Positions 26,770 through 45,478 of a stretch of DNA of 64,000 nt are shown in pieces (the first letter of the stretch is position 1; the number at the start of each line of letters is the position of its first letter). Made by a program: the position numbers and the translations under genes. This DNA comes from Rhodothermales bacterium (GTDB lineage: Bacteria; Bacteroidota; Rhodothermia; Rhodothermales; Bin80). The notes under the pieces were generated by a model. That model was not told the DNA's origin and made no database searches. It was given only the letters and a program-made list of their open reading frames with translations. Location: the NCBI GenBank assembly GCA_963663495.1, contig OY760427.1, forward strand, positions 5,119,690 to 5,183,689, in the 5' to 3' direction.

Positions 26770-26779
26770 TACACCGCAG

Positions 26780-28585: not shown

Positions 28586-28624
28586 CGCCCGCGAAAACGC
28601 GTGACACTCAGCCATATAACTCCC

Positions 28625-29093
28625 AAATGCATGCAGAGGAGCAGTCATTTCCGATACTTCGGAGAAAATATCAGAAGACCGGTGCGCCTCGGCGATCTCG
28701 GCGTCCGTCAATCCCTCAATGATCTGCATCGGTGCGGCAGCACGCATCGCCCGGTCAAGCGGGTCCCTTAGGAAAAGGCTACTATGTTCGTTTGTCCTCT
28801 GCACAGCGCGAGCCACCCACTCGCCGAACAGGCTGTCGCCGCATCGGAGATGATGATCAAGAAAGCTTAGCGGAGCGCCGACGGTGAAGGTGTGGAGCCA
28901 AAGCGACACCTTGGCCAGCTCTACCGCCATTGGGATCTTATCAACACCGTAGACGCACCGCTTGAGCACCATGCGACGGATAATGTGCTGATCGTCAAGC
29001 TGATCCGTATTGTATGCCCGGCCCTTGTCCTCCGCGTTACCAATGATCTTATTGCGGATAGCGTCAATCCTCTCTGCAAGCGGAGAAAGATAT
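28625..29093 (-). pseudogene. Internal fragment of a type IIG / Eco57I- or PglX-like N6-adenine DNA methyltransferase gene, trapped between two IS ends
   Basis: The minus-strand translation is ...LAERIDAIRNKIIGNAEDKGRAYNTDQLDDQHIIRRMVLKRCVYGVDKIPMAVELAKVSLWLHTFTVGAPLSFLDHHLRCGDSLFG... The (I)YGVD..P.AVE.AK..LWL block is typical of these large MTases. Both sides are cut by GGGAGTTATATGG ends that point outwards. Confidence 0.6.
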
Positions 29094-29140
29094 GGGAGTT
29101 ATATGGCTGAATGCCACGCGTTTTCGCAGGAGTTACTTAT

Positions 29141-31491
29141 CCTAACTTCGCCATTTCGTAGTGCTACTAACCTACGGAATTCTCCCGTGGCCATATTTGG
29201 ACCGTTTTTTTCAGGAGCAATGGATGGTGAGATTTACCGGATCGGTTGAAGTTGGTTTAGGGTGGTTTGAATCCCTGATTACCTGGTGTTTTGCCGCCTG
29301 TTTCGCTGCGATCTATCTCGGATCGTTTCCATCGGACGTAGCTCTGGTGGCTCCATCTGGAGTACGCTATCTCAACCGTTGTGAAGGGACCATACGTCAT
29401 GAGTCTGGAGGCTTCTGGCTCACCGGTGCACTCGCTTCCTCCACATGCTCGGTCACGGTGCGGGTCGCATCCGGATCATACACGTATCCCAGTACCGCAA
29501 AGAACTGTACCATACTCGGAGGCAGATCCTGATCCACCTCCGTGATCAGGTACCGATATTGGTTCTTAACCATCTTGGTCGTAATCCGACGAATCCTGTT
29601 CAACCTGTCTCGGATCGTCGCCCAACTATCATGAATCCCGTGTTCCTTGAGTCTGGTGCGAACCAGATGGGCAGCATGATAAGCCAGTACCGTGATGAAC
29701 AGATGTCCTTCAATGCGGTCATCTCTGCTGTGGTAGATGGGCCGTAGACCGAGGTCCGATTTCATGACTCTGAATGTGCGCTCAATCTCTGTAAGTCGCC
29801 AGTAGGTTCGTGCAACCGTTTCCACCGACCATCCGGTATGACTGGTCCGAAGCACATACCCTCCGCTGGCCTGGGTGCGACGCGCATGCGACGCACGCCG
29901 GGTCACCGTAACGGATTCTGCATGCTTGGTGCCCTCCTTTTTGCTGACCTCTACCTCATACAGGTGTGAGACCTTCTTGTACTTTTCCTTCAGACGACCA
30001 ACCTTTATCGTGACCTTTTCATAGTTCTTCAAGTACCCGGGTTTCGAGAGTCCCTCATGTAGTGTAGTGAGCGCCTTCACAAACTTCTTGCATTGGGTTT
30101 CAAGGATCTGATCCTCCTTCGCCTGCTTGGCCTCACTGTGCACAAACACGCGTAGTTCCGCATTATCTTCAACGTCTTTTTCGTCTTCGCCATCTTCGCC
30201 ATCTTTTTCCTTTTTGGTGACCTTCCAGGCTTTGATCTTGACTCCCCCGGCGGTCGTAAACTGTTGATCCGGCTTGTTTTCGGGGACTGGAGGGGCTTTG
30301 GAACGCTCCACGGTGATCCAGTTCAGTCCCTGTTCTTTCAGGTACTGCAGATTCTGCTCCGTCGCAATGCCGGAGTCCATAATCACTGTGGGCGTAGCGC
30401 CGTTTAGTTTCTCAATCGCCTCTTTGAGCGTTGCCGGTTCCCCTGCATTGCCCGGCAGGATCTGCACATTGCGGGGGAACCCCGAACCATCCAGGGTGAG
30501 CGCCAGCGTAACCAACGGACAATCACTGCGCTTTTCCTTGCTGCGCCCATGCGACAACAACTTCCCTTTCTTCTTGCCGTGGTAATAGGTATTGGTTAAA
30601 TCATAAAAGACGATCGTTTCTTCAAACTGCAATACCGCTTTGGTAATGCCAAAGAGTTTCTCCAGGATCTCATCCATATGCTTATGGATCAGATCGGTGC
30701 AACGATAGAGGGTGTTGAGACTCGGGGGTTCCAAATCCAGAAGCTGCAGAACACTGGAGGTTTTACACAGCCATTTATGCGTTTCTCGTTCACTGCCCGG
30801 GTGGAGCATACGTCCGACGATCAGCGCACAGCAGAGCTTGACGTGTTTCTCGCAGAAGTTGAGCGAACGTAGCAGTACAGCCAGTCCGAGCTGTTCCAAT
30901 GTCTGAAGGATCAGTCGTTCTCCGCCGACGGTCCGGGAATCGGGATGGGTTGTTTTCTCTGGATCAATGAGGTGTTGCTGATGGGATGTGCGATGGATGT
31001 CGTAGCCCTTGCTTTCGAGATGTGCAACGATGTCGTCGACCGCATTGAGAAAGGCTTCATCATTCTGGAAAGGGAGGCTGGCTTTCCCTTTGAGTCGGGC
31101 AGTAACGCAATGGGTCAGTTCCCCCCACAGACTGCGGGGGATGTTGAAGTTCGGGCCGAGATTAAGGAGGGTGCGGTGTTTGGAGGTACCGTCTTTGCGA
31201 TAGGATTCGATGAGGGCAAAGCTGTTGCATTTCTTACCGTCTTTACGTTTGTAGGGTCGGTTTCGGATAAACATGATCGGAGTGTGGAATTGGTACGAGG
31301 TAAGGTACCGGGGTGGTTGGGGGGAGGTTCCCGTCCACACCTCTATAGCACTACATTGCCTTTTCCGAAAAAGTCGGCTAAAAAAGGTCGAAAAACGCCG
31401 AATTTAGCCGAAATAGCCCTATTAGGAGGGAAAAACGAGAGAATTGGAGGCGGAACTCAGCGTTTTCCCCTGACCGGATGGCGAAGTTAGG
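29141..31491 (-). mobile_element. IS1634-like (IS4-related) insertion sequence, 2,351 bp, nested in the leader of tnpB element copy 1
   Basis: The 14-bp IRs are CCTAACTTCGCCAT (29141..29154) and its reverse complement at 31478..31491. A 4-bp duplication TTAT lies at 29137..29140 and 31492..31495. Removing the IS plus one TTAT restores the leader seen in copy 2, apart from one substitution. Confidence 0.85.
29397..31274 (-). CDS. IS1634-family-like DDE transposase
   Basis: The ORF is 29397..31340; the likely start is M23 (31274). The N-terminus MFIRNRPYKRKDGKKCNSFALIESYRKDGTSKHRTLLNLG is the typical opening of IS1634-type transposases. The protein is about 625 aa. Confidence 0.75.
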   Translation of the reverse strand: MFIRNRPYKRKDGKKCNSFALIESYRKDGTSKHRTLLNLGPNFNIPRSLWGELTHCVTARLKGKASLPFQNDEAFLNAVDDIVAHLESKGYDIHRTSHQQHLIDPEKTTHPDSRTVGGERLILQTLEQLGLAVLLRSLNFCEKHVKLCCALIVGRMLHPGSERETHKWLCKTSSVLQLLDLEPPSLNTLYRCTDLIHKHMDEILEKLFGITKAVLQFEETIVFYDLTNTYYHGKKKGKLLSHGRSKEKRSDCPLVTLALTLDGSGFPRNVQILPGNAGEPATLKEAIEKLNGATPTVIMDSGIATEQNLQYLKEQGLNWITVERSKAPPVPENKPDQQFTTAGGVKIKAWKVTKKEKDGEDGEDEKDVEDNAELRVFVHSEAKQAKEDQILETQCKKFVKALTTLHEGLSKPGYLKNYEKVTIKVGRLKEKYKKVSHLYEVEVSKKEGTKHAESVTVTRRASHARRTQASGGYVLRTSHTGWSVETVARTYWRLTEIERTFRVMKSDLGLRPIYHSRDDRIEGHLFITVLAYHAAHLVRTRLKEHGIHDSWATIRDRLNRIRRITTKMVKNQYRYLITEVDQDLPPSMVQFFAVLGYVYDPDATRTVTEHVEEASAPVSQKPPDS

Positions 31492-31649
31492 TTATTGTGC
31501 TTTGGTGGTGCAGACAGGATGGCTTTTGCCAGTTTTTCATAATCGGCTCCCGCTTTTCACGAAAAACTGCAATTATTTCAAATAACTCAACACGTGGGTA
31601 CGCATGGAATATAATTTTCATATATTAGGGAGTTATATATCACAGTGCC

Positions 31650-32900
31650 ATGCCCGAAACGGTTAGTGCATACCGCAATATCACATACAGGCTGTTGCCC
31701 GGAAGTCGAAGTAACGCCAAGCAACTTGCTGGATTAGCGGGTGCGTGTAGGTTTGTGTGGAATGCCATCCTCGCAGAGCAGAGCGAGGCCTACAAGAAAG
31801 CGAAAGAGGCTGGAGAGAAGCCGCCCTCGGTAAGCTTCTTCTCGCTGGGGAAGCGGTTCACGGCACTGCGCCGTACGGTCGAGTGGCTACCTGAATACTC
31901 CTTTGGTGTCGTTAGATACACATTGAAATATCAGGCGGATGCATGGAAAGCATTCTTCAAGGAAGGTAAGAGAAGACCGAGATTCCATTCCAGACGTGGT
32001 AGTACGCCTTCGTTCACGATCCCGGATAACGTAAGGGTTCGGGATGGCAAGCTGTATATCCCGAAAGTGGGATATATGGCGCTCCGCAGGCGGGGAGGCA
32101 ACCCGTACCCTGATGGTATACCCATCAAAGCCACTGTAAAGAAGAACGCAGGCAAATGGTATGCTGTCATCTGCTACAAGATGGAGGCACCTGTAATAGA
32201 GGATACCGGCAGTGCTGTAGGCATTGACCGTAATTGCGGGCAGATCGCTATGGTCTCCACAGAGGGCGATACAAGCATTATCAGACAACCGGATACGAAG
32301 CGTCTTGATGCCAAGTTGAAGCGGCATCAGCGAAGACTGGCGAGACAGAAGAAAGGCTCCAACCGTCGTAACAGGCGGAAGCATAGAATCGCCCGCATAC
32401 AGCGCAAGCGTGCTACCATCCTCAAGAATGCGAACCACCAGGTAAGTCGCAGTATTGCCAAATGCTCCTCAACGGTGATACTGGAGGACCTAAAGATCAA
32501 AGCGATGACACGTTCAGCTAAGGGGACGATGGAGAGCTTTGGCACAAACGTCAGACAGAAGTCTGGCCTCAACCGTGGAATACTGCGAACAGGTTGGGGC
32601 CAGCTGGATCAGATGCTGAGCTATAAGTGCCGCAAGGTGATAAAGGTTACCGCTGCCTATACCAGTCAGCGGTGTTCTGTGTGTGGGCACACAGAAGCGA
32701 GTAACCGTAAGACGCAGAGCAAATTCACGTGTATGTCCTGTGGACATGCGGATCATGCAGACCTGAATGCGGCTGCAAACATACTGGCCTCCGGGATTGG
32801 GGCTTCTGCACGGCGAGGGGCGTTCGGGTTACCGACCCCTATGACCCGTGAAATTGATACTAGTGCCTCACTGTGTACAGTTGGTCACTCACGTATATAA
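31650..32900 (+). CDS. tnpB: TnpB (OrfB_IS605/Zn-ribbon) RNA-guided-nuclease family protein, apparently intact
   Basis: 416 aa. RuvC-I is AVGIDRN and RuvC-II is TVILEDLKIK. The zinc finger is CSVCGH...FTCMSCGHADHAD, and RuvC-III is DLNAAANIL. Confidence 0.9.
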   Translation: MPETVSAYRNITYRLLPGSRSNAKQLAGLAGACRFVWNAILAEQSEAYKKAKEAGEKPPSVSFFSLGKRFTALRRTVEWLPEYSFGVVRYTLKYQADAWKAFFKEGKRRPRFHSRRGSTPSFTIPDNVRVRDGKLYIPKVGYMALRRRGGNPYPDGIPIKATVKKNAGKWYAVICYKMEAPVIEDTGSAVGIDRNCGQIAMVSTEGDTSIIRQPDTKRLDAKLKRHQRRLARQKKGSNRRNRRKHRIARIQRKRATILKNANHQVSRSIAKCSSTVILEDLKIKAMTRSAKGTMESFGTNVRQKSGLNRGILRTGWGQLDQMLSYKCRKVIKVTAAYTSQRCSVCGHTEASNRKTQSKFTCMSCGHADHADLNAAANILASGIGASARRGAFGLPTPMTREIDTSASLCTVGHSRI

Positions 32901-32905
32901 TTCCC
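32760..32905 (+). ncRNA. Candidate omega-RNA (reRNA) scaffold overlapping the tnpB 3' end and the right end
   Basis: This is by analogy to characterised TnpB loci. The segment is conserved between the two copies right up to the ends (32905 and 42873), after which they diverge completely. It contains local hairpins such as AGGGGCG..CGACCCCT. The boundaries are a guess. Confidence 0.3.
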
Positions 32906-32920
32906 CGTTTAAACCCGCTA

Positions 32921-33907
32921 ATGTGCGAGATGACGAATCCCCAGCGTTTGGCCCGCGACCTTAAGCAGGAGGCCCGTCGGCTTGGATTGGCAGCCTGCGG
33001 TATTGCGAAGGCTGAGCGATTGGACGAGCAGGCGCGGCTCTTGGAAGCATGGCTTACAGCAGGACGCCATGCTTCCATGTCGTACATGGACCGAAACTTT
33101 GAAAAGCGGATTGACCCGACCCGACTGGTGGACGGAGCCCAGTCCGTAGTATCTGTGATTGACAACTACTATCACCCCGACCCTGCACCCGTTAAGGACT
33201 CGCTAGGCTGCATTAGCCGGTACGCACGGGGAGACGATTACCATTACGTGCTGAAGGACAAGCTCTTTGCACTGTACCACTGGCTTGAAGATCGTGTGGG
33301 AACCATGACCGGGCGGGTGTTCGTGGATTCTGCCCCCGTGATGGACAAGGAATGGGCCCGGAGGAGCGGTCTCGGCTGGATAGGTAAACATTCAAACCTG
33401 ATAAACCCATCCCTGGGCTCCTATGTATTCATAGGGGAGATGATCATCAGTGTGCCGCTTGCGGCGGACAATCCCTTCCAAACCGATCACTGCGGGTCAT
33501 GCACCGCATGCATGGACGCCTGTCCAACCGATGCCATCTACCGTCCCTATGCGGTGGATGCAAACCGGTGCATTTCGTATTGGACCATAGAGCATCGGGG
33601 GGACACCATCCCGGAAACCTTGGGAGAAAAGTTTGGCAACTGGATCTTCGGCTGCGACATTTGCCAGGAAGTATGCCCTTGGAACAAGTTCAGCCGCCCA
33701 ACCCGCGAGCCTCGGTATCAGGCACGCCCGGACGCAACCGATACGTCCCTTGACACATGGATGGAATTAGACATGGAAGCCTTTCGCGCACGCTTCAGGA
33801 ACAGCCCCGTGAATCGTGCACGCTTTGAAGGATTTGTCCGCAATGTCCGCAACGCACGCGCTAACCGGGATCGGCACTCTCCAGACGCAGCAGAGGGAAA
33901 AGAATAA
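32921..33907 (+). CDS. queG: Epoxyqueuosine reductase QueG
   Basis: CGSCTACMDACPTDAI, CISYWTIEHRG and CDICQEVCPWNKF motifs. The start is ATG 32921 or 32930; the upstream part of ORF 32873.. lies inside the IS right end. Confidence 0.9.
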   Translation: MCEMTNPQRLARDLKQEARRLGLAACGIAKAERLDEQARLLEAWLTAGRHASMSYMDRNFEKRIDPTRLVDGAQSVVSVIDNYYHPDPAPVKDSLGCISRYARGDDYHYVLKDKLFALYHWLEDRVGTMTGRVFVDSAPVMDKEWARRSGLGWIGKHSNLINPSLGSYVFIGEMIISVPLAADNPFQTDHCGSCTACMDACPTDAIYRPYAVDANRCISYWTIEHRGDTIPETLGEKFGNWIFGCDICQEVCPWNKFSRPTREPRYQARPDATDTSLDTWMELDMEAFRARFRNSPVNRARFEGFVRNVRNARANRDRHSPDAAEGKE

Positions 33908-35372
33908 CATCCCGGATGGATGACTGGTCCGTCATCACCATGGCAAGGCGATCAATGCCGACACCAAGACCCGCAGTTGGCGGCATGCCGTATTCGAGAG
34001 CGCGAAGGTAGTCCTCGTCCACGGGCATCGCCTCGACATCTCCACCGCTGGCCTGTTGACGCTGCTCCATAAACCGGGCACGCTGGTCCTCAGGGTCATT
34101 GAGCTCGCTGAAGGCGTTGCAGAGTTCCTTACCGTTACAGAACCCCTCAAAGCGCTCCACCAACCCGTGCCGGGAGCGATGCCGTTTTGCGAGAGGGCTT
34201 AGCGCAAGCGGGTAGTCAATAATGAAGGTGGGCTGAACGAGGTGCGGCTCCACAGTCTCACTGAATATCAGGTCAAGCAGCTTGCCCTCCCCCATCGTGC
34301 CGTCTGGCTCCAAACCCCGTTTGTGCGCAGCAGCCTCCAGCGTTTCCCTGCCAGCGCCGTACAAGTCCAGACCTGTATACGCACGTATGGCATCAAAAAA
34401 GGGGAGGCGGCGCCAAGGCGGGGCAAACGACAGCTGGCCGTCTCCGCAAGGCACTTCCGCCGTGCCGTGTATGCCGCGTGCCACATAGCACAGCATTTCC
34501 TCTACCAATTCCATCATCCAGCGGTAGTCTTTATAGGCGACATACAGCTCAAGCATGGTGAATTCAGGGTTGTGGTACCGGCTAATCCCCTCGTTGCGGA
34601 AGTCCTTGGCAATCTCGTATACCCCGTCAAAGCCACCTACGATCAATCGCTTAAGGTACAGCTCATCTGCTATGCGCAGGTACAGCGTCATATCAAGAGC
34701 ATTGTGATGGGTCACAAAAGGACGCGCGGCTGCGCCGCCGTAGATCGGCTGTAACGCCGGTGTCTCCACCTCCACATAGCCACGCTCATCCAGAAAGCCG
34801 CGCAGCAGTGTAATCATCCGGGCTCGCCGTTCAAACACCTCGCGGACATCAGGGTTAACGGCCAGATCCACATACCGCTGGCGGTAGCGGAGCTCCTGGT
34901 CGGTCAGCCTGTTGAACTGCTGATCATCGGCCTTCTTGCCTGCCGGAAGCGGGCGGAGAGCCTTTGCCAATAGTGCAAAGCGGGTTGCGTGGACCGTGAT
35001 TTCTCCCACACGCGTTCGGAATACAAACCCCGCAACACCTACCACATCGCCCAAGTCCAGCAGGCGCTTGAAGGCTTCATTGTAGAACCCTGGCGGAAGG
35101 TCGTCCCGCCGCAGGTAGACCTGGATTCGTCCGGTTGCGTCCTGCAGATCAATAAACGCAGCCTTACCCATCACTCGCTTGGACACGATGCGGCCGGCGA
35201 TGGATACAAGCATCGCTCCGTCCGCGTGCTGCGTGTCGTCGAATGTCTCTACGACGGTACGTACATGGAAGTCTACGTCCCAAGCGTACGGGTACGGCTC
35301 CGTACCCCTGGCGCGCAGCGCACCAAGTGCCTCCCTCCGGGTGTCCTCCTGGTCAGTGTATGCGCGCGCCAA
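33861..35372 (-). CDS. lysS: Lysine--tRNA ligase (class II)
   Basis: OB-fold N-terminus. Class II motifs (...FRNEGISRYHNPEFTMLE..., ...GLGVGIDRLAMVMT...). Confidence 0.95.
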   Translation of the reverse strand: MARAYTDQEDTRREALGALRARGTEPYPYAWDVDFHVRTVVETFDDTQHADGAMLVSIAGRIVSKRVMGKAAFIDLQDATGRIQVYLRRDDLPPGFYNEAFKRLLDLGDVVGVAGFVFRTRVGEITVHATRFALLAKALRPLPAGKKADDQQFNRLTDQELRYRQRYVDLAVNPDVREVFERRARMITLLRGFLDERGYVEVETPALQPIYGGAAARPFVTHHNALDMTLYLRIADELYLKRLIVGGFDGVYEIAKDFRNEGISRYHNPEFTMLELYVAYKDYRWMMELVEEMLCYVARGIHGTAEVPCGDGQLSFAPPWRRLPFFDAIRAYTGLDLYGAGRETLEAAAHKRGLEPDGTMGEGKLLDLIFSETVEPHLVQPTFIIDYPLALSPLAKRHRSRHGLVERFEGFCNGKELCNAFSELNDPEDQRARFMEQRQQASGGDVEAMPVDEDYLRALEYGMPPTAGLGVGIDRLAMVMTDQSSIRDVILFPLLRLESADPG

Positions 35373-35388
35373 GTGCAGCCTGCGGGAA

Positions 35389-36111
35389 TTATAGGCTCAC
35401 GGGTGTCACTTGCATCGGGATATCCACCAGCGGCCGGTCTGGGGTGCGAGAGCTCTGCGACATGCCAGCGGGCGTGGCCACCCTCGTAATGTGGTCAAGC
35501 ACATTAAACCCTTCCACCAACTCGCCAAAAACCGTGTACCCGCCATCCAGCATCGGAGCTCCACCGTCCGTTGTATACCCTTCCCGTTCCTCCTCGGAGT
35601 ACGAGAACGACGGATCTTCAAATTGCTGCCGTGCCCTTTCCTCGAATTGCGACAGATGGTCCGGTGGATAAAGAGTACCGTGAACAATGTAAAACTGGCT
35701 CCCGCTGGATGCCCGTTCCGGGTTCATTTGGTCCGGTGTCCGCGCCGCTGCCAGCGCGCCGCGCTTATGGAGTAAGCTACGGTTGATTTCTTTCGGGGTC
35801 GTGTACCCCGGTCCCCCCTGCCCATCGTTGTCAGGGTTATCATCGCGGGAATTCGGGTCTCCACCCTGAATCATGAATCCGGCCATCACCCGATGAAAGG
35901 TTGTTCCGTCGAAAAATTCGTCTGCAGCAAGCCGTTTGAAGTTGTCCCTGTGCAGCGGCGTTTCATCGTAAAGCCTAATGACCATACGCCCGTACGGAGT
36001 ATCAATGGCATAGTAGTTGGTGTCTGCGGCGCTATTCGCACCCGGGCCCTCATTAATACAGCTTGAAGTCAAAGCCACTACAACCAGGAAAAGAGAAATC
36101 CTATTGAACAT
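35389..36111 (-). CDS. Cyclophilin-type peptidyl-prolyl cis-trans isomerase (lipoprotein-like signal)
   Basis: FHRVMAGFMIQGGDP signature. N-terminus MFNRISLFLVVVALTSSC. Confidence 0.9.
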   Translation of the reverse strand: MFNRISLFLVVVALTSSCINEGPGANSAADTNYYAIDTPYGRMVIRLYDETPLHRDNFKRLAADEFFDGTTFHRVMAGFMIQGGDPNSRDDNPDNDGQGGPGYTTPKEINRSLLHKRGALAAARTPDQMNPERASSGSQFYIVHGTLYPPDHLSQFEERARQQFEDPSFSYSEEEREGYTTDGGAPMLDGGYTVFGELVEGFNVLDHITRVATPAGMSQSSRTPDRPLVDIPMQVTPVSL

Positions 36112-36499
36112 TGCCTAATTTGCTATGATGGGTTTGGAAGTATGCCAATACAGCTACCTTCAATAGTGTTTCCTGCTCCACCCCGGACAAGCCGGCAGGC
36201 AGGACCTCCATGACCTCCCACACCCAGTGTCCGTCCGCTTCCATGCCGGTTCGCTGATAAAAGCCCAAGGTTTCGAAGGCGCAGTATGTTCCCTCCACCA
36301 CAAGGCGCTCTTTTGTCGTCTTATCCAGGTCGCGAGCATATCCTCTGCCCGTTTCCTGTATGCCGATTAGAAACAATATGCCGTCCAGGTCACACTTTCG
36401 TCTGAACCGTTCCTTAAGCTGGACCGTGAGCCGCTGCCAGCGTTCTTCCACAACCTTGCGGGATCTCAATTGTGATTCCCATGAGGCGATATCGGGCAT
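36101..36499 (-). CDS. Hypothetical protein (132 aa)
   Basis: The ORF overlaps the start of the downstream PPIase gene by 11 nt, so an operon with the PPIase gene and lysS is likely. I recognise no motif. Confidence 0.45.
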   Translation of the reverse strand: MPDIASWESQLRSRKVVEERWQRLTVQLKERFRRKCDLDGILFLIGIQETGRGYARDLDKTTKERLVVEGTYCAFETLGFYQRTGMEADGHWVWEVMEVLPAGLSGVEQETLLKVAVLAYFQTHHSKLGNVQ

Positions 36500-36520
36500 G
36501 CTGAATGTGTCCGCGGCAAG

Positions 36521-37747
36521 GTGCGCCCCGAACAGAGATTCTTGCGGGAGGTTCCATTCGTGCGACTAGAGGCCCCTATACGTCCGCATGGTAAAGGATC
36601 CCGGAAAGCGGGTGTCCGGGGTACGCTCTTGATGTTGGACCATGCAGCGGTTCTCGGTGGAGCGGAGTGGTCCTTATACGATATTGCACGGCATCGCCCG
36701 TGCTCAGTCCTGCTATTTGAGGATGGCCCCCTCCGCGATATGCTATTGAAGGAACATGTTCCATGTGCTGTCATGCCTGCTCCCAACCTGCTCCGACGGC
36801 GGGGATCCACCTCACGCGCTGGCTGCAGGCTCCTGTTGCCTATGCAGCTAAGACATTTTGCTCGGCAGGTCAGCCGCCGGGCGCGCGGGGCGGGGATGCT
36901 CTATGCAAATTCTCTTCAATCGTTTCTGGTGGCCGCGGAGGCCGGAAGGCACGCACAAGTCCCTGTTATCTGGCACTTGAGAGAAATGCTGTCCGCACCG
37001 TACATTGACGGCGTGGGCCGGCGGTTGTGCGTGCGCTTCTCCCGCCGGCCAGCCGTATATATCATTGCGAACTCGCATGCCACCGCCCGTACATTCGTTG
37101 ATGCTGGCGGTGCGCCCGAGCGTCTTAGCGTGATTCACAACGGGGTTGAGGTGCACGCCGCTGCGGAACCCGCCATCAGCGTGCGATGGAATGGCTCTCC
37201 GGTGGTAGGCATGTTCGCCCGCCTGGCGCGCTGGAAGGGACACAGGGTGCTGCTTGACGCTCTGGCTTTGATGCCGGGCGTGCATGCCGTCATTGCCGGC
37301 GCGCCACTATTCGAATCGCCTGCATATGCAGCGGAGCTGAAGCAGCGTGCTGCAGGCTTGGACATTGATGAACGCGTCCATTTTGTAGGCCACCGGAGCG
37401 ATGTTCACGCTTTGATGCAGAGCGTTGACATCGTCGTGCACGCTTCAGTAGCCCCCGAGCCGTTCGGGCGCGTGATTGTGGAAGCGATGCACCTCGCCAA
37501 ACCTGTAGTAGCCACCGACACGGGAGGTGTGAAAGAACTTATCACGCACGGGAAGAACGGGATACTAATACCGCCCGCGGACGCCAGCCGACTTGCGAGC
37601 GCCGTAATGGAGCTGTTGAACGACAAGAATGCGGCGGCACACATGGGACGGCGAGGCGCCGCCGTGGCCGCCGCGAGGTTTTCATTACCGGCGATGCTTG
37701 CCAAATTGGATGCTCGTCTGGTAAGCATCGAGGAAGCGGGAGCATAA
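36521..37747 (+). CDS. Glycosyltransferase family 4 (GT-B, retaining)
   Basis: C-terminal EX7E region (SVAPEPFGRVIVEAMHLAKPVVATDTGGVKELI). The start is uncertain; M38 at 36632 (MLDHAAVLGGAEWSLYD) looks more like the usual N-terminus. Confidence 0.8.
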   Translation: MRPEQRFLREVPFVRLEAPIRPHGKGSRKAGVRGTLLMLDHAAVLGGAEWSLYDIARHRPCSVLLFEDGPLRDMLLKEHVPCAVMPAPNLLRRRGSTSRAGCRLLLPMQLRHFARQVSRRARGAGMLYANSLQSFLVAAEAGRHAQVPVIWHLREMLSAPYIDGVGRRLCVRFSRRPAVYIIANSHATARTFVDAGGAPERLSVIHNGVEVHAAAEPAISVRWNGSPVVGMFARLARWKGHRVLLDALALMPGVHAVIAGAPLFESPAYAAELKQRAAGLDIDERVHFVGHRSDVHALMQSVDIVVHASVAPEPFGRVIVEAMHLAKPVVATDTGGVKELITHGKNGILIPPADASRLASAVMELLNDKNAAAHMGRRGAAVAAARFSLPAMLAKLDARLVSIEEAGA

Positions 37748-37781
37748 CGACGCCATGATCCGATATTCTCCTGAAGCACTG

Positions 37782-38849
37782 TCAGTCGCGCAAGCGGACG
37801 CCAAGCCCGGGGGCGTTGAGCGTAAACAGTCTGCCCCCGTCCAGGCGCACGCCTCCTGTTGCGGCATCCCTTGAAAGATCAAAACTGCCATCAAGGTCGA
37901 GGTATCGGGTCGCAGGACACGCGTACGCCGTGTGCAATGCAGCCGCAATGCTGATTACGCTTTCGTCCATACAACCCCACATGAGCGATTTCCCCGCGTT
38001 ATGCGCCGTACGGGCGATAGCCCGCGCCGCCAGCACGCCCCCGCACTTCATCAGCTTAATATTGAAGATGCCGTAGGGACCGGAGCTGCCGGACAACTTC
38101 TTCGCGTCCTCCTCGGAATGCAGGCTCTCGTCGGCTGCCATCCTCGGTACTACGCTTTTCGGGAGGCTGCCCAGCGCATGGCAGGAGCCCGGTGGCATGG
38201 GTTGCTCTATCAGTTCGATGTCCAGTTCAGACACCAGTGCAGATAGTGCTCTCGTTTCTTCCAGGTTGTATCCCTGGTTTGCGTCCACCCGGATACGAAT
38301 GGACGGACCCACACGACGCCGCAGCGCATGGAGCCGCTCAGCATCTTCCAGCGCGTCGTGCCCAAGCTTGACCTTGATGCAGGAGAAGCCGCGGCCCACA
38401 TACTCATCGGCCTCACGCAGGGTCTCAGCAACCGATAGAATACCGATAGTGATGGATGTTGCAAGGCCCCGGTGGTGGCGACCGAGGTAATCGACCAGTG
38501 GCTTGCCTGCCGCACATGCCAACAGGTCATGCAACGCCATATCCAGCGCCGCCCGCGCGGAAGGGTGGGCGGCAAGCCTTTGCCCCACCCACTCTACGAG
38601 TTTCCTGCTATCGTCCAAGCTACTGCCAACCAGTGTGTCCCGACCGACAGCCTCTATTCTATCGGCGCAAGACGCTGCGGTCTCACCCGTAACATCGGTT
38701 GGTGCCGCGGATCCAAGGCCTACCTTGCCGCAATCCGTGGCAAGGCGAACAAACTGAAGGGAGACGGCATCCACCGACTTGAAGGCGATGGTATAGGGAC
38801 GTACTAACGGCAGGTCTTCCTGCCAGGACTCAAGATGCCGTATGACCAT
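37782..38849 (-). CDS. Enolase-superfamily dipeptide epimerase (L-Ala-D/L-Glu epimerase-like)
   Basis: Mandelate racemase/muconate-lactonising-type motifs (KVKLG, RVDANQGY, IEQP, ADES, KLMKCGG). Confidence 0.8.
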   Translation of the reverse strand: MVIRHLESWQEDLPLVRPYTIAFKSVDAVSLQFVRLATDCGKVGLGSAAPTDVTGETAASCADRIEAVGRDTLVGSSLDDSRKLVEWVGQRLAAHPSARAALDMALHDLLACAAGKPLVDYLGRHHRGLATSITIGILSVAETLREADEYVGRGFSCIKVKLGHDALEDAERLHALRRRVGPSIRIRVDANQGYNLEETRALSALVSELDIELIEQPMPPGSCHALGSLPKSVVPRMAADESLHSEEDAKKLSGSSGPYGIFNIKLMKCGGVLAARAIARTAHNAGKSLMWGCMDESVISIAAALHTAYACPATRYLDLDGSFDLSRDAATGGVRLDGGRLFTLNAPGLGVRLRD

Positions 38850-39903
38850 GACGACAACGGGCTGCGATGGTTTGAGCGATCAAGGTTACACCGTCCTCCA
38901 GCGGGATGGCTACGGGCAGGCCCAGCGATGCAGAAAGATCCTTTTGGGCCCGGAGAGCCTGGCGCCTCGTCATGCCGCGCGTGAAGAGGCTTATGCCCCA
39001 GACATCCGCGCCCAATATCCTGACCAGAGCAATCTCATCTTCCAATGACGGGATCCGGCATCCGGTGGACTCAAAGCCTTCATAAAACTGACGGTTCGGA
39101 GCATGCTGCAGAATGACCCCATGTGCTGCGCCGGAAAGAATAAGCTCGGAACCGGCCGGTCCTGAAGGATTTCGCAGGCCCGACTGTCCTTCCATGAGTA
39201 TTATGTCCGGGTGGGAGCCTGCTTCACATGCGAGCAGCGCCGCTTCAAGCTCCCCGGAGACAAAATCGTTGAGTGTGGCATCGAAAATAAATCCGTAGTC
39301 AAGTCCCTGCAGCCACCCTGTCTGGCCGGTAAATATCATCTGCGTATTAATGCCAAAGGCCCGAAGCTCATCGCGGAGAAGCAGACAGGTAGTGCGTTTG
39401 CCGATGGCGCAATCTGTCCCCAGCACGGCCACACGCCGAGCCTGTACGGAGTAGACCTCGCCTGTCCAAAACCGAAGATCTCGTGTTGGCTTCGGTTTAC
39501 GTATGTCAATAATGGATCCCCCGCTTCCCTCTATAAGCTTGCAGATCGCGGGATCGGCGGATAGCAGGTGATGCAATCCATTGACCAGTGTCATGCCATG
39601 TGCGGCAGCTGATTTGAGATCACTATAAAGCGTGCGAGGAAGAACGCCGCCGATGGTCGCAACGCCGATAACGCAATGTGTGGGGGGCGGCGTTAAGGTT
39701 GCAAGCGCATCCGGCACGGAGCCGAGCACAGGGATGCCCCTACGTTCACCGTCCAGTATGCTCCCGGCGTCCTGCCCGGACTGCTGTGCGTCAACTACCG
39801 CGGCAAGCTCATATCTGCAAGGGCCGCGTACCAGACCGTGCGTCGTCTTTGCGAAAACGGAGTCGAAGTAGCCCGCTGTCAGTGCTATTGCCCGGGAATG
39901 CAT
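38830..39903 (-). CDS. DUF1611-family protein (usual partner of the dipeptide epimerase)
   Basis: P-loop-like LGTDCAIGKRTT, family-typical length, and a 20-nt overlap with the epimerase gene. Confidence 0.7.
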   Translation of the reverse strand: MHSRAIALTAGYFDSVFAKTTHGLVRGPCRYELAAVVDAQQSGQDAGSILDGERRGIPVLGSVPDALATLTPPPTHCVIGVATIGGVLPRTLYSDLKSAAAHGMTLVNGLHHLLSADPAICKLIEGSGGSIIDIRKPKPTRDLRFWTGEVYSVQARRVAVLGTDCAIGKRTTCLLLRDELRAFGINTQMIFTGQTGWLQGLDYGFIFDATLNDFVSGELEAALLACEAGSHPDIILMEGQSGLRNPSGPAGSELILSGAAHGVILQHAPNRQFYEGFESTGCRIPSLEDEIALVRILGADVWGISLFTRGMTRRQALRAQKDLSASLGLPVAIPLEDGVTLIAQTIAARCRHGHTAS

Positions 39904-39963
39904 GCCTTGCGCATATTCTGGCTCGGTACAGACTCAATATACATTCCGCGGAACCTTGCCCGT

Positions 39964-41218
39964 TTAGTCCCAATGCCGGCCCGGTATGCGTGTACGCAAT
40001 ACTCCGCGGTACCTCATGACAAGACATTGGCTCACCAACCGTTGGGCCCTACGATGGCGCAGGCAGACGTGCCCTTTCCGCGCAGGGCAACAGCACCTAA
40101 GCGCTTTCCCTCCGGTCTTCCTGTACAGATTCACAAGCTGCTCTGCCGGATAGGCTTCTGCATCCAGATCGGTGATCAGATAGAAATGCCGCGGGAAAAG
40201 CTCTCCCGGCACCGGATCAACCACGAGCACCACACGACGCTCTACGGACCAGCACTTTGCACGGTAGCGCAGTTCGTGGTAGCATTCGTCCGATGGCTGA
40301 TCACCCTCCAAATGAGGCGCCGCAAGCCCGTCAATCACATCGTTTCCTTTCAGACGCATCACATAGCCGATACGGTCGTTCTCCAGCTTATCACATAACT
40401 CTCCACTGTTGAAGCCTGCGTCCAATCGGACAATGACCCTGTCGGCCACATGTTCACGCAATGCCAGCCCAATGCGTCGAATGAAACCGTAGCAGTCCTT
40501 CACCACATTCTGCGTGCCCCCTCGCAATTCCGCCCCCAACATGTCACCCGACTCACCGCATATGGCGATAAGGAGCAGAAAGATGGTGCGCTTATAATAC
40601 CCGTTCCATTTGCTGCCCTGCTGCTTGCCATGCGTATCTACCGGTACACCGTCCACATCAAAGACTACCTCGGGGCGGCGCTTCCCGCCACCACGCTGCA
40701 CCAGGTGCTCCATGGCGAATGTCTCTGCAAAAAGGCGCAACTTCTTGAAATTCTTTTTCCCGGCCAACATGCGCACGAAGCGAGACATGGTTGGCTGGGA
40801 TGCCAGGGACCTATCGTCTCTGTAATGCCTCCATACCCCTTTTGGAAGAAGTGGCCACGCGCATGGCGGGGTCCCTTCGAAGCTTGTCCGCATCTGACTG
40901 ACGGCCCCACCCCTGCACATGTTGCAGCAGGTACTGCCGCACTAACTCCTCAAGGCTATGCGTAATCCGAGCTTGGGACCGATTGTCCTTAAGCACGGAA
41001 GCGAGTCGGCATGCCAAGGTGCTGATCACCATGAGCAGGCGCATAGGAATGACGCCCGCATCCGATGTTAGATTATCGGTCTTGGAGCGTACAACTTTAG
41101 CGGATTTATTGAACTGGCAAGCGAACAGAAGGTTGGATTTGGGATCTTGCATCGGGTGTGTTACAGGGTGAATGGGTATTGGGGTCTCTAAACGTTTGAG
41201 TATCGCGCAAGAACCCAT
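39964..41218 (-). pseudogene. IS1380-family transposase, frameshifted with a degenerate 3' part
   Basis: Two overlapping ORFs in different frames (40811..41218 and 39964..40920). The N-terminal part is ...LTSDAGVIPMRLL...ITHSLEELVRQYLLQHVQGWGRQSDADKLRRDPAMRVA. It continues as ...SLASQPTMSRF...VFDVDGVPVDTHGKQQG... The tail after LYRKTGGKA is non-homologous. Confidence 0.75.
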
Positions 41219-41583
41219 TCCAACCGTGTATAGCCAACATCTTACACCATAAACTTAAACGACGATTTCCCGCCGGTTAACTCCCTTATGAATAAGGGAG
41301 GGTTATGGTAGGACAATTTTCAGCTGCCGTACGATTTTGCAGAAAACGCCAACATGCATAGATGGCTGTAACGTAAACTTGGGGGGTTATATGGCTGAGT
41401 GCCACGCGTTTTCGCAGGAGTTACTTTTTGTGCTTTGGTGGTGCAGACAGGATGGCTTTCGCCAGTTTTTCATAATCGATTCCCGCTTTTCACGAACAAA
41501 CTGCAATTATTTCAAATAACTCAACACGTGGGTATTCATGCTATATAATTACCATCTATTAGGGAATTATATAGCACAGTGCC

Positions 41584-42812
41584 ATGCCCGAAACGGTTAG
41601 TGCATACCGCAATATCACATACAGGCTGTTGCCCGGAAGTCGGAGTAACGCCAAGCAACTTGCTGGATTAGCGGGTGCGTGTAGGTTTGTGTGGAATGCC
41701 ATCCTCGCAGAGCAGAGCGAGGCGCACAAGAAAGCGAAAGAGGCTGGAGAGAAGCCGCCCTCGGTACGCTTCTTCTCGCTGGGGAAGCGGTTCACGGCGC
41801 TGCGCCGCACGGTCGAGTGGCTACCTGAATACTCCTTTGGTGTCGTTAGATACACATTGTCGTTAGATACACATTGTCGTTAGATACACATTGAAATATC
41901 AGGCGGATGCATGGAAGGCATTCTTCAAGGAGGGTAAGAGAAGACCGAGATTCCATTCCAGACGTGCGTAGTACGCCTTCGTTCACGATCCCGGATAACG
42001 TAAGGGTTCGGGATGGTAAGCTGTATATCCCGAAAGTGGGATATATGGCGCTCCGCAGGCGGGGAGGCAACCCGTACCCTGATGGTATACCCGTCAACGC
42101 CACGGTAAAGAAGAACGCCGGCAAGTGGTATGCTGTCATCCGCTACAAGATGGAGGCACCTGTAATAGAGGATACCGGCGGTGCTGTAGGCATTGACCGT
42201 AATTGCGGGCAGGTCGCTATGGTCTCCACAGAGGGCGATACAAGCACTGTCAGACAACCGGATACGAAGCGTCTTGATGCCAAGTTGAAGCGGCATCAGC
42301 GAAGACTGGCGAGACAGAAGAAAGGCTCCAACCGTCGTAACAGGCGGAAGCATAGAATCGCCCGCATACAGCGCAAGCGTACTAACGTCCTCAAGAATGC
42401 GAACCACCAGGGTAGTCGCAGTATTGCCAATTGCTCCTCAACGGTGATACTGGAGGACCTGAAGATCAAAGCGATGACACGTTCAGCTAAGGGGACGATG
42501 GAGAGCTTTGGCACAAACGTCAGACAGAAGTCTGGCCTCAACCGTGGGATACTGCAAACAGGTTGGGGCCAGCTGGATCAGATGCTGGGCTATAAGTGCC
42601 GCAAGGTGATAAAGGTTACCGCTGCCTATAGCAGTCAGCGGTGTTCTGTGTGTGGGCACACAGAAGCGAGTACCCGTAAGACACGGAGCAAATTCACGTG
42701 TATGTCCTGTGGCCATGCGGATCATGCAGACCTGAATGCGGCTGCAAACATACTGGCCTCCGGGATTGGGGCTGCTGCACGGCGAGGGGCGTTTGGGTAC
42801 CGACCCCTATGA
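41584..42812 (+). pseudogene. tnpB: tnpB pseudogene (copy 2)
   Basis: About 95% identical to 31650..32900 but split into ORFs 41584..41883 and 41907..42812. The lesions are a 34-bp tandem expansion (41841..41891), a 1-bp insertion near 41965, and a 1-bp deletion near 42797 that moves the stop. Confidence 0.9.
41841..41891 (+). repeat. Perfect triplication of a 17-bp unit inside tnpB copy 2
   Basis: TGTCGTTAGATACACAT occurs three times back to back (41841..41857, 41858..41874, 41875..41891). The intact copy 1 has a single unit. Confidence 0.97.
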
Positions 42813-42907
42813 CCCGTGAAATTGATACCAGTGCCTCACTGGGTACAGTTGGTCACTCACGTATATAATTCCCTAAACTTGAAACGCTGAATTGATTACG
42901 ACGAACG

Positions 42908-45478
42908 ATGATACCAAAACCGGTCCGAACCCTTACCGCCTCCCCAGCACTACCGCCGGCCCTCATGCGTTTGCGCGAGCTGGCTTACAATCTGCGATGG
43001 GCTTGGGATGAAGATGCGCTTGACCTGTTCCGCCGGCTCGGCACTGATCATTGGTCAGCGTCCGGACACAACCCCGTCCTGCTGCTCGGCATATTGCCCC
43101 AGCAGGAACTGATAGACGCAAGCAACGACGAATCTTTTCTAGCGCACTTGAAGCGCGTGAGTGCGGACCACGATGCCTACATGGCACAAACATCAACCTG
43201 GTACCAGAAAAACGGTGGAGAGAACACCGATGTAGTCGCCTACTTCTCCGCGGAGTTCGGGGTGACGGAATGTTTGCCGATTTTCGCGGGCGGCCTTGGA
43301 GCGCTGGCAGGTGACCATCTCAAGTCGGCCAGCGATATGGGTATCCCTCTTGTGGGGGTAGGACTACTGTATCAACAGGGATATTTTCGGCAGCACCTCA
43401 ATGAGGCGGGATGGCAGCAGGAAACCTACCAGCCCAACGATTTTGCCAATCTGCCGTTAGTGCTGGAGTATGACACGCATGGGGCGCCGCTAACCGTTAG
43501 CGTGGGATTTCCGGGACGGCAGGTTCACGCACGGATCTGGCGCGTGCAGGTGGGGCGCGTACCGCTGTATCTCCTTGATACGAACTTTGCCGCCAATCCG
43601 CGCGACGAGGACAGGGACCTGACAGATTACCTCTATGGCGGCGGCGATGAGCTTCGTATCCGGCAGGAGGTGATGTTGGGAATAGGAGGCTATCGTGCAC
43701 TGCACGCACTGAACATACGCCCCGGGATCTACCATATCAACGAAGGCCATTCGGCCTTCCTCGCACTGGAGCGGATACGCATCTACATGCAGAGCAAAGG
43801 TCTCTCGTTTGATGAAGCGCGTCTTGCGGCAACAGCAGGAATCGTCTTTACTACGCACACGCCGGTGGAGGCGGGGCATGATCGATTCGTCCCGCGCCTG
43901 ATGGACACCTACCTCACAGGATTTGCAGAACGGGAATTGCATCTTTCGCGGCGGGACTTTCTCGGACTCGGCAGGCATGACGCGAACAATGACAACGAGA
44001 AATTCGGCATGACGAAGCTTGCTCTCCAGATGTGTGCGGTTTGCAACGGTGTCGCCAAGCTCCACGGAGAGGTTAGCCGGAAAATGTGGCAGAATCTCTG
44101 GCCTAATGTGCCGGAGCACGAAATACCGATTGGGCATGTAACGAACGGGGTGCATGTATCAAGCTGGCTGTCGTCAGATATGAAACAGCTTTTTGATCGG
44201 TATCTGGGGCCGAGGTGGAGGACGGAACCGGGAGACAGGTCTATATGGAGCCGCATAGACCAGGTGCCGAGGGCTGCCTTGTGGCGGACGCATGTCTTGC
44301 GGCGCGAGCGATTGATTGATCTGGCACGCAAGCGCGTGCAACTACAACTGCATCGCGTCGGCGCACCCCAAGCTGACCAGCATGCTGCAGCTGCGGTACT
44401 TGACCCTCAAGCATTGACGATAGGGTTCGCCCGTCGCTTTGCGACCTACAAGAGGGCGACGCTCCTTCTCAGCGACCTGGATCGCCTTGCGCGCATCGTA
44501 GGCAGCGAGGACCATCCGGTGCAGATCATATTCTCCGGCAAGGCACACCCCAGAGACCAACCGGGCAAGGAACTCATACAGCGCATTGTGACAATAGCAA
44601 GACAGCACCCATTTCGTGGTCGCATTGTGTTTCTTGAAGACTATGACATGGCCATCACCAGGGCGATGGTGCAAGGGGCGGATGTTTGGCTTAACACGCC
44701 CCGGAGGCCCCGCGAGGCCAGTGGCACAAGCGGAATGAAAGCCGCCGTGAATGGGTGCCTGAATGTCAGCGTGTTGGATGGATGGTGGGACGAAGCATAC
44801 GATCCGGATCTCGGGTGGGCCATCGGCACAAGAGAGGTTATATCAGACCAAGCCTATCAGGATGCTGTTGAGGCAGACAATCTGTATGACGTTCTGGAGC
44901 ACGACATTGTGCCGCTGTTCTACAGGCGAACATCCGACGGGCTGCCGCGCGAGTGGATCCAGCGGATGCACGGCTCCATTGCCGAGTATGCATCACGGTT
45001 CAATTCCCATCGCATGGTAGAGGAGTACTATACCGGGGCCTACCGCTTGGTGGCCAGCCATTGCAATGATCTGATTACCGAGGATATGAGCAACGTGCAA
45101 GCGCTTGCCGCTTGGAGCGGCAAGGTTGCATCGAAATGGGGTTCGGTACGGATCCGTACAGAGGGGTGCGGGACCAAGAGTATGTTGCAGGTGGGCGAGA
45201 CCTTTTGCGTACGCGCAAGCGTGGACCTCGGTGGGCTTGAACCAGATGACGTGGATGTCGAACTCTACTTCGGCGAGGTGACAGCTGCAGAGGAGATCGT
45301 GCACCCGCAAGTGATCCCACTTGAGATGACGGGTAGAGACGGTGGCACCTACGCGTTTGGCACCGATACCGTTACCTGCCCCCGCAGCGGCTTGTTCGGA
45401 TATACGGTACGGGTCGTACCGAAACGGAAGGGTGTACCTTGGATGCGGGGTTGGGCCGTATGGCCATCTGCCGAATAA
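42908..45478 (+). CDS. glgP: Alpha-glucan phosphorylase (GT35, DUF3417-type N-terminus)
   Basis: LAYNLRWAWDEDALDLF N-terminal region. PLP-lysine motif EASGTSGMKAAVNG. Confidence 0.9.
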   Translation: MIPKPVRTLTASPALPPALMRLRELAYNLRWAWDEDALDLFRRLGTDHWSASGHNPVLLLGILPQQELIDASNDESFLAHLKRVSADHDAYMAQTSTWYQKNGGENTDVVAYFSAEFGVTECLPIFAGGLGALAGDHLKSASDMGIPLVGVGLLYQQGYFRQHLNEAGWQQETYQPNDFANLPLVLEYDTHGAPLTVSVGFPGRQVHARIWRVQVGRVPLYLLDTNFAANPRDEDRDLTDYLYGGGDELRIRQEVMLGIGGYRALHALNIRPGIYHINEGHSAFLALERIRIYMQSKGLSFDEARLAATAGIVFTTHTPVEAGHDRFVPRLMDTYLTGFAERELHLSRRDFLGLGRHDANNDNEKFGMTKLALQMCAVCNGVAKLHGEVSRKMWQNLWPNVPEHEIPIGHVTNGVHVSSWLSSDMKQLFDRYLGPRWRTEPGDRSIWSRIDQVPRAALWRTHVLRRERLIDLARKRVQLQLHRVGAPQADQHAAAAVLDPQALTIGFARRFATYKRATLLLSDLDRLARIVGSEDHPVQIIFSGKAHPRDQPGKELIQRIVTIARQHPFRGRIVFLEDYDMAITRAMVQGADVWLNTPRRPREASGTSGMKAAVNGCLNVSVLDGWWDEAYDPDLGWAIGTREVISDQAYQDAVEADNLYDVLEHDIVPLFYRRTSDGLPREWIQRMHGSIAEYASRFNSHRMVEEYYTGAYRLVASHCNDLITEDMSNVQALAAWSGKVASKWGSVRIRTEGCGTKSMLQVGETFCVRASVDLGGLEPDDVDVELYFGEVTAAEEIVHPQVIPLEMTGRDGGTYAFGTDTVTCPRSGLFGYTVRVVPKRKGVPWMRGWAVWPSAE

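Follow-up and report, generated by a model that had tools for sequence, protein, structure and literature searches.

A composite element with a decayed tnpB gene

The element analyzed here occupies positions 41382..42873 of a 64,000-nucleotide stretch of a Rhodothermales bacterium genome (the whole of this stretch is called the window below), and it is very probably a dead non-autonomous transposon of the IS1595 family, ISNwi1-like, that carried a TnpB/ωRNA payload and was moved in trans, as in the full model set out in the Discussion. Read directly from the sequence, it is 1,492 bp long, starts with GGGGGTTATATGGCTGAGTGCC and finishes with GTCACTCACGTATATAATTCCC, and 16 of 22 positions in its outer ends match as inverted repeats. 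A perfect 8-bp repeat, TAAACTTG, is found on both sides (41374..41381 and 42874..42881), the left copy being preceded by a G at 41373. Nothing suggests that this octamer was already doubled before insertion. The sole gene inside is tnpB, which is decayed, and the element holds no transposase. Direct reading bore out every sequence statement of the original prediction, which had been made from the letters of the window. The prediction had also treated the locus as a single element with terminal inverted repeats (TIRs), which holds for the outer TIRs and the target-site duplication (TSD) but not for what lies between them, and it had overlooked an intact second copy at 29094..32905.

Rather than a simple unit, 41382..42873 is a composite of a unit resembling a miniature inverted-repeat transposable element (MITE), an 8-bp spacer, and a tnpB cassette, with IS1595-type TIRs on each part. 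The MITE-like unit (41382..41553; 172 bp), with GGGGGTTATATGGCTGAGTGCC as its outer TIR, is an internal-deletion derivative of an IS1595-family insertion sequence (IS) and is inverted relative to it: in reverse complement, its first ~90 nt align to the right end of the IS at 26850..28624, a match that had been noticed previously for the left end of the element, and its last ~85 nt to the left end of the same IS. The spacer, ATCTATTA (41554..41561), separates this unit from the tnpB cassette of ~1.3 kb (41562..42873), which has TIRs of its own: both of its ends carry an identical GGGAATTATATA (12/12), and overall they match at 17 of 22 positions, so that the cassette's own TIRs are better matched than the outer pair of the composite. 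The left TIR of the cassette, GGGAATTATATAGCACAGTGCC (41562..41583, plus strand), shares 18 of 22 positions with the left TIR of the IS and reaches the tnpB start codon, with a gap of 0 bp to the ATG at 41584; the right TIR, which is GGGAATTATATACGTGAGTGAC when read inward (42852..42873, minus strand), was likewise read directly and matches the end motif. The composite inserted by its outermost TIRs, producing the 8-bp duplication, and the last unit to transpose is the MITE-plus-cassette composite. When the window was searched with a degenerate form of the IS1595-type end motif, eight matches were obtained versus 0.08 expected by chance, of which two are the ends of the IS at 26850..28624, three lie in 29094..32905, and three in 41382..42873.

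In DNA sequence, the decayed tnpB (41584..42868, plus strand) is 96.4% identical to its intact counterpart at 31650..32900, relative to which it has three frameshifting indels: +34 bp at 41841..41874, +1 at 41967, and −1 at 42797. The 34-bp insertion is a tandem duplication, in which a 17-bp unit, TGTCGTTAGATACACAT, is present three times at 41841..41893 and once in the intact copy.

A second copy and its IS1595-family neighbor

The IS1595-family (ISNwi1-like) IS at 26850..28624 (plus strand; TIRs GGGAGTTATATAGCTGACTGCC and GGGAGTTATATGGCTGAGTGTC) is the candidate trans-acting partner. It encodes a transposase of 318 amino acids (26975..27931, plus strand) with the Pfam domains DDE_Tnp_IS1595 (2e-37) and Zn_ribbon_IS1595, which places the protein in the IS1595 class, and its TIRs share 17 to 18 of 22 positions with the ends of the tnpB cassette. 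As a passenger remnant, the IS also contains a C-terminal fragment of a C5 DNA methylase (~28013..28182; DNA_methylase match).

The second composite copy (29094..32905, plus strand) shows the same order of MITE, spacer, and cassette. An unrelated IS of 2,351 bp (29141..31491), with perfect 12-bp TIRs (CCTAACTTCGCC), TTAT on both sides, and a 647-amino-acid DDE_Tnp_1 transposase on the minus strand, interrupts its MITE part (29094..29140 and 31496..31619). The spacer, ATATATTA (31620..31627; 8 bp), is conserved relative to ATCTATTA at 41554..41561, which indicates that the composite is ancestral to both copies. The cassette (31628..32905, plus strand), again with its own TIRs, contains an intact tnpB of 416 amino acids (31650..32900, plus strand; Pfam HTH_OrfB_IS605, OrfB_IS605, and Cas12f1-like_TNB).

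The second copy has no TSD of its own. An 8-bp direct repeat, CGTTTAAA, bounds the larger block 26850..32905, with its left copy at 26842..26849 (preceded by a G at 26841) and its right copy at 32906..32913. Because this repeat flanks the entire block, the IS, a trapped Eco57I-like methylase fragment of 469 bp (28625..29093, not contiguous with the neighboring host genes), and the second copy seem to have moved jointly as a compound transposon of 6,056 bp. This event seems to have used the left TIR of the IS together with the right TIR of the cassette, with the apparent capture of a piece of a host or restriction-modification (R-M) gene. The right TIR of the cassette is the working end in two independent events within the window that duplicated 8 bp.

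TnpB elements with TIRs and TSDs in other genomes

With one genome scanned per species, we obtained 80 loci that encode TnpB relatives, at 45 to 78% identity. They lie in metagenome-assembled genomes (MAGs), which belong to Rhodothermales, Paracoccaceae, Arenicellales, and other Gammaproteobacteria; an additional look-up yielded a MAG from Bacteroidota, in which the TnpB element is flanked by the TSD AAAGCAAA. Many of these loci come from MAGs of sponge metagenomes. To bound the elements, the right end was taken from a covariance model of the RNA module described below, followed by a search for the partner TIR. Both TIRs were present in 65 of 68 related elements (GGGnnTTATAT...; up to 29/30 positions inverted), with 16 to 29 inverted matches over 22 to 30 nt across the set. 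The tnpB elements bounded in this way measure 1.2 to 1.6 kb, which leaves room for tnpB only. Perfect 8-bp TSDs flank 36 of the 65 elements with two TIRs, and another 8 match at 7 of 8 positions; matching flanks were missing from the other 21, suggesting that exchange between copies occurs. The cassette type recurs in several bacterial phyla as an element with TIRs and a TSD, either with or without a longer 5′ leader, and in one locus (L001) the short cassette alone, as found in the window, is bounded by a perfect TSD. The stop codon of tnpB lies 5 to 30 bp from the element end in these loci. In some cases, the tnpB frame runs through the entire ωRNA region and stops at the TAA in the TIR's TATATAA, 5 bp from the end (32898..32900 in the window; L006, L008, and L029).

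Genes that could move the element were sought as well. None of the 80 loci has an IS1595 transposase inside the TnpB element, and no DDE transposase gene adjoins tnpB in the 80 TnpB loci or in 94 IS1595 loci. Since the transposase is never adjacent in this sample, screens based on gene adjacency would probably miss this clade. A tblastn search with an IS200 TnpA sequence as query gave no match to a Y1 TnpA in the window or in the 80 loci. As to a serine recombinase gene, there is no space for one within the TSD-bounded elements, and the flanks were not searched specifically for one. Among the PLSDB plasmids there was no close relative, all matches being classical IS605-type TnpBs below 37% identity.

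Autonomous IS1595 elements as the partner family

Autonomous elements were collected from metagenome loci and from protein look-ups for relatives of the 318-amino-acid transposase, at 37 to 67% identity. This set comprises 32 TSD-flanked elements of 1.8 to 3.2 kb, 26 of them from metagenomes and 6 being closer relatives (in one of these, L164, only the left end is covered); with the window's own IS added, n = 33. The autonomous elements have GGGnnTTATAT ends and perfect 8-bp TSDs, and some of their TIRs are near-identical to those of TnpB elements over 22 to 24 nt. For instance, the TIR of the autonomous element L172, GGGGATTATATACGTGAGTGCCC, is almost identical both to that of the TnpB element in L011, GGGAATTATATACGTGAGTGCCC, and to the right TIR in the window, GGGAATTATATACGTGAGTGAC, and the TIR of the TnpB element in L045 shares 20 of 24 positions with that of the autonomous element in L110. 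The ISNwi1 and ISNwi1+ groups of ISfinder have an 8-bp TSD, ends of the form GGnnatTAT, and passenger genes in some members; this end pattern is seen on the autonomous elements analyzed here.

In most autonomous elements, the passengers are R-M genes. Complete R-M genes (Dcm, N6_N4 methyltransferase-HNH, Vsr, and GIY-YIG) lie downstream of the transposase in L089, L123, L161, and L166 to L174, while the IS of the window keeps a methylase stub only; these complete genes in its autonomous relatives indicate that this IS group ferries R-M systems. An autonomous IS1595 element with tnpB inside it, as a possible parental form, was not found in 80 metagenome loci. At the level of protein clusters, TnpBs that are 98% identical (P0001) account for 212 member sequences, compared to 41 in two transposase clusters (P0121, with a transposase 97% identical, and P0123), a ratio that is as expected if non-autonomous elements outnumber their helper. 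The 212 TnpB and 41 transposase members probably sit in the source genome, which would amount to a very large expansion.

A structured RNA module reaching the tip of the right TIR

The TnpB of these elements has the hallmarks of a nuclease: at least 98 of 101 homologue clusters share the residues D193, E279, and D371 and four cysteines (both CxxC pairs), so that the RuvC D-E-D triad and the zinc-finger cysteines are retained. Its best relatives in the PDB are TnpB structures, including ISDra2 TnpB (8bf8; E ~1e-22), with an end-to-end alignment, and it is ~35% identical to classical IS605-family TnpBs such as InsQ from E. coli.

The final ~120 nt of the elements are conserved beyond coding need. 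From an alignment of 18 diverse 3′ ends (A1), a structure was predicted with RNAalifold and its pairs were then counted. The 18 predicted pairs are 97.2% paired, 13 of them with compensatory changes, a result that none of 500 shuffles reached, and controls in which the alignment was slid were 32 to 48% paired. In the second copy the helices span 32787..32850, and the module continues to 32905 (32787..32905, plus strand). A covariance model, R1, consisting of the structured region and the right TIR, matches the 3′ end of essentially every tnpB locus (~80) and always ends at the TIR tip; in the window it scores 127 bits at 32779..32905 and 114 bits at 42748..42873, the latter corresponding to the ωRNA-like module of the decayed copy (42756..42873, plus strand), which overlaps the 3′ end of tnpB and stops at the tip of the right TIR. 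R1 did not match any of the 94 autonomous IS1595 loci, and a scan of 26000..44000 with Rfam matched no family. One locus contains the module by itself: L057:56-239 is a 184-bp MITE with TIRs of the TnpB-element type, an 8-bp TSD matching at 7 of 8 positions, the leader, and the ωRNA module, but no tnpB. Since only leader and RNA module are kept, we regard it as a standalone ωRNA element, and since it is bounded by IS1595-type TIRs and a TSD, as a DDE-type MITE.

The conserved GACCCGUGAAAU is followed downstream by a short segment, GAUxyz, that resembles the TIR positions UAUxyz, and xyz covaries by clade between segment and TIR (ACG/ACA/ACC, CGA, GCY, or ACCUGACU). Because xyz changes jointly in both places, the segment and the right TIR can form base pairs on either side of a variable hairpin, which is suggestive of the right TIR being part of the ωRNA scaffold. 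The element end lies 37 to 51 nt past the conserved GUGAAAU motif, and the stretch in between consists of a clade-specific hairpin and the TIR, not of a conserved spacer.

A near-invariant G beside the duplication

The target octamers reconstructed from the TSDs follow a symmetric, AT-rich pattern, N-W-W-N-N-W-W-N, which is common to TnpB elements and autonomous elements. What distinguishes the two is the base at position −1, that is, 5′ of the left octamer. It is G in 42 of 43 unique TnpB-element sites and in both events of the window (44/45), compared to 11 of 33 among the autonomous elements, where distant members contribute 7 of 26 and closer members 4 of 7; Fisher's test, computed on an earlier count of 40/41, gave a P value of ~1e-9. 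No such bias is seen at the base that follows the right octamer on its 3′ side (C14, A11, G11, T7). Left flanks that have no TSD partner mostly retain the G as well (55/64). Octamer position 1 is A in two-thirds of the sites, and G^A is the top-strand bond to be attacked by the ωRNA-side 3′ end. The G may reflect a constraint of the kind imposed by a target-adjacent motif (TAM).

Two other causes were considered and rejected. A 9-bp TSD or a shifted boundary would not produce this pattern, as the base before the right copy of the repeat is always the C of the TIR. TnpB-guided choice of the target, as in CRISPR-associated transposons, is at odds with insertion sites that are mutually unrelated and with nuclease residues that are intact.

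Discussion

tnpB is canonically linked to IS200/IS605 elements, with their Y1 TnpA, and to IS607 elements, with their serine recombinase, neither of which have TIRs or TSDs; IS200/IS605 elements have subterminal hairpins and insert next to a 4- to 5-nt target. Judged by its ends and TSD, the element at 41382..42873 is a non-autonomous, ISNwi1-like member of the IS1595 family and not an IS200/IS605, IS1341-type, or IS607 element. With IS200/IS605 elements of the IS1341 group it shares the single tnpB, the ωRNA over its 3′ end, the many copies per genome, and the canonical domains with the RuvC triad; it differs from them in its TIRs of 20 to 30 nt, its 8-bp TSDs (at 44 related sites and in the window), and its IS1595-type DDE partner. 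IS607 differs in that TIRs and TSDs are present here and that there is no room for a second gene. The ISNwi1 groups of IS1595 agree in the 8-bp TSD, the GGnnatTAT-type ends, and the presence of passenger genes, whereas the tnpB elements have no transposase and carry as their passenger a nuclease that itself belongs to mobile elements, with its RNA joined to the TIR.

The shared ends, the 8-bp TSDs, and the lack of an internal transposase thus support the view, already taken in the original prediction, that this is a non-autonomous IS1595/ISNwi1-type element which a DDE transposase would mobilize in trans. That prediction took tnpB to be cargo. The gene does lie inside an IS1595-type element, but it appears to be more than a passive passenger, since its ωRNA-like RNA runs into the right TIR and stops there. 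In the mechanism we propose, an IS1595-family DDE transposase supplied in trans (the candidate in the window being that at 26975..27931) would bind the TIRs and move the element by cut-and-paste. The ωRNA scaffold would take in the right TIR and read into the flank, such that the guide would start with the right copy of the duplicated octamer (42874..42881 at the decayed element) and continue into the downstream DNA. TnpB would then cut an unoccupied or precisely excised site, and recombination would restore or spread the element. Site cutting followed by restoration through recombination has been shown for TnpB of IS200/IS605 elements. In such a scheme the −1 position would be that of the TAM: the empty site has G and the occupied site has the terminal C of the TIR, so that the donor would be spared, and only insertions beside a G would be restored or driven to a frequency visible in a MAG consensus. 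An obligate mobile element-guided activity (OMEGA) system adapted in this way to a DDE transposon, with a TIR-built ωRNA, a guide made of octamer and flank, and G as the TAM discriminator, is a tentative proposal, and the reading of the G that we prefer, to which we give somewhat less than an even chance. If it is true, restoration or drive restricted to G would explain both the 44/45 bias and the high copy numbers in symbiont genomes.

Several points weigh against the model as a whole. The copy at 41382..42873 is itself non-functional, its tnpB being a pseudogene. Mobilization in trans is predicted from the shared ends and the length of the TSD, and among the other TnpB-bearing genomes a transposase lies nearby only in L073. 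The 3′ end of the ωRNA, the position of the guide, and the TAM are predictions from sequence. The duplex between the segment following GUGAAAU and the right TIR is favored only modestly, with a mean of −7.8 kcal/mol for cognate versus −5.6 kcal/mol for non-cognate combinations, and the likeness of segment and TIR could equally be due to a repeat bound by the transposase at the DNA level. The standalone ωRNA MITE L057:56-239 has an A at −1, which makes it a clear exception alongside L008. Finally, a G on the left side is also found in the autonomous elements of both sampled TnpB-bearing genomes (the window and L073) and in three of the six closer autonomous relatives (62 to 67% identity), i.e., L161, L164, and L167, and the −1 G could stem from a transposase lineage outside the sample.

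This last point leads to the most serious competitor, namely, that the particular lineage of IS1595 transposases acting on these elements prefers targets with a −1 G, which would then not be an effect of TnpB and its TAM. The window's IS, L073, L161, L164, and L167 all have the G at −1 on the transposase-upstream side (the last three with transposases 62 to 66% identical), and the G^A bond is attacked by one specific transposon end, so that an asymmetric transpososome could impose such a bias. However, other close relatives, L168, L169, and L172, have C, C, and A; among the 26 more distant autonomous elements, some of which share the TIRs of TnpB elements, only 7 have G; the bias spans TnpB elements of several bacterial classes, presumably with different transposases; and the G-side end of the window's composite derives from the right end of the IS, not the left. 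This explanation keeps its place because of the G next to the autonomous elements of the window, L073, L161, L164, and L167, and we hold it to be quite possible, if on the doubtful side.

We consider it unlikely that TnpB and its RNA have ceased to be of use to the transposon and are cargo only, for instance as an RNA-guided regulator or as a nuclease with a fixed internal guide. The 37 to 51 nt between GUGAAAU and the element end could in principle be a fixed guide, and exaptation of TnpB is known (TldR; PMC10705468), but the catalytic residues are conserved, that stretch has the clade-specific makeup described above, the many mobile copies are typical of selfish elements, and the target asymmetry would be hard to explain if the system did not read the flank. 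Still less probable, to the point of being improbable in the extreme, is that an ordinary solo tnpB of the IS200/IS605 (IS1341) type came to lie by chance between unrelated IS1595 and MITE ends, with TIRs and repeat irrelevant to its movement. Such a history would be in keeping with the ~35% identity to InsQ and with the window's outer left end belonging to a separate MITE. Against it stand the cassette's own TIRs, placed at the start codon and 5 to 30 bp from the stop codon, the bounds of TIR plus TSD at 44 sites across several bacterial phyla, an ωRNA model that stops exactly at the TIR tip in ~80 loci, the failure of the tblastn search with the IS200 TnpA query to find a Y1 TnpA, and the perfect TSD around the cassette alone in L001. 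That the 8-bp repeats of the window arose by chance or by recombination between copies, as the 21 of 65 related elements without matching flanks might suggest, is hardly credible in view of two independent perfect octamers (each with a chance of ~1 in 65,536 for a fixed junction pair, with ~16 end pairings possible in the window) and 36 more perfect TSDs elsewhere.

How does the OMEGA-like element proposed here relate to TnpBs already known to travel with DDE transposases? The original prediction started from a link of bacterial tnpB with IS200/IS605 and IS607 alone, a premise that no longer holds: the main text of Altae-Tran et al. 2023, PNAS (PMC10691335) describes six TnpB branches (DDE-1 to DDE-6) tied to DDE transposases with inverted terminal repeats, solo TnpBs that have the same ends and were apparently mobilized in trans, and a distance of at most 250 bp between the 3′ end of TnpB and the end of the transposon. 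In these three respects (inverted terminal repeats, proximity of the TnpB 3′ end to the transposon end, and trans-mobilized solo TnpBs) the elements resemble ours. That main text names IS630 but not IS1595, and it is silent on TSDs of 8 bp, on an ωRNA that stops at the tip of the TIR, and on a one-sided G; in addition, tnpB was never found beside its transposase in our 80 loci, unlike in those branches, at least some members of which have an adjacent DDE gene. A 2026 review (PMC13565253) lists ISL2, IS630, and IS1031 as DDE partners of TnpB, calls the association rare, and speculates on the reasons. In the literature covered, which included the main text of PMC10691335, we found no publication that names IS1595 as a partner of TnpB, and nothing specific emerged on TnpB in connection with IS1595 or ISNwi1, with passenger genes, or with symbionts of sponges. 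Hence, TnpB within DDE transposons was published in 2023, and IS1595 is, as far as found, a new partner family. The ωRNA ending at the TIR tip, the DDE-type standalone-ωRNA MITE, and the near-invariant G beside the duplication also look new. Standalone ωRNA elements as such go back to Altae-Tran et al. 2021, as summarized in the main text of PMC10691335, and L057:56-239 resembles them in keeping the ωRNA module without tnpB.

The parallel to Fanzor nucleases drawn in the original prediction is not a new idea; as far as found, only the partner family is new. Yoon et al. 2023 (PMC10711439) reported Fanzor1 (and Fanzor2*) in TIR transposons, such as the non-autonomous SfAV element, and proposed that the TIR is part of the scaffold. 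Common to both systems are a non-autonomous element with TIRs and a TSD, a TnpB-like nuclease as its only gene, a TIR proposed to be in the scaffold, and a guide taken from the flank. Here, the host is bacterial, the TnpB is compact at ~400 amino acids, and the partner is IS1595; furthermore, the TSD is 8 bp and variable and is therefore not a constant part of the scaffold, unlike in Fanzor1 elements. The family is the closest bacterial counterpart to non-autonomous Fanzor elements that we found.

What benefit a DDE transposon draws from an RNA-guided homing nuclease is puzzling, because its excision already leaves a break and the TSD separates the element end from the flank. The family described here is a compact and abundant bacterial system, with dozens to hundreds of copies per genome in several phyla. 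Its clear ends, identifiable partner transposase, standalone-ωRNA MITE, and sharp −1 G signature make the question experimentally testable. It could also supply small TnpBs of ~400 amino acids with an unusual TAM, and its significance would rise if the G proved to be a TAM-based discriminator of empty and occupied sites.

Other insertions at and near the elements

In a Rhodothermales MAG, another element is inserted in the TATATA of the cassette TIR (L002, L003, L004 at ~5200-5230 and 3900-3990, and L010 at ~5245); the junction reads ...GTATATA followed by GTGTGCCACGAAAATAC...GGGGGTCG, pointing to a second mobile element with these TIRs as its target. In Paracoccaceae, the TIR tip adjoins TTTGCCTGGCGCAA, in forward or reverse-complement orientation, where a TSD would otherwise stand, on the left in L017, L020, L022, L024, and L034 and on the right in L063 and L077. 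Either a single repeat family has been hit several times, or the sequence belongs to an element that inserts at TIR tips. Within the window, the region directly upstream of the composite (39964..41218, minus strand) is a decayed IS with a frameshifted DDE_Tnp_1_4 transposase, present as open reading frames of 318 and 135 amino acids.

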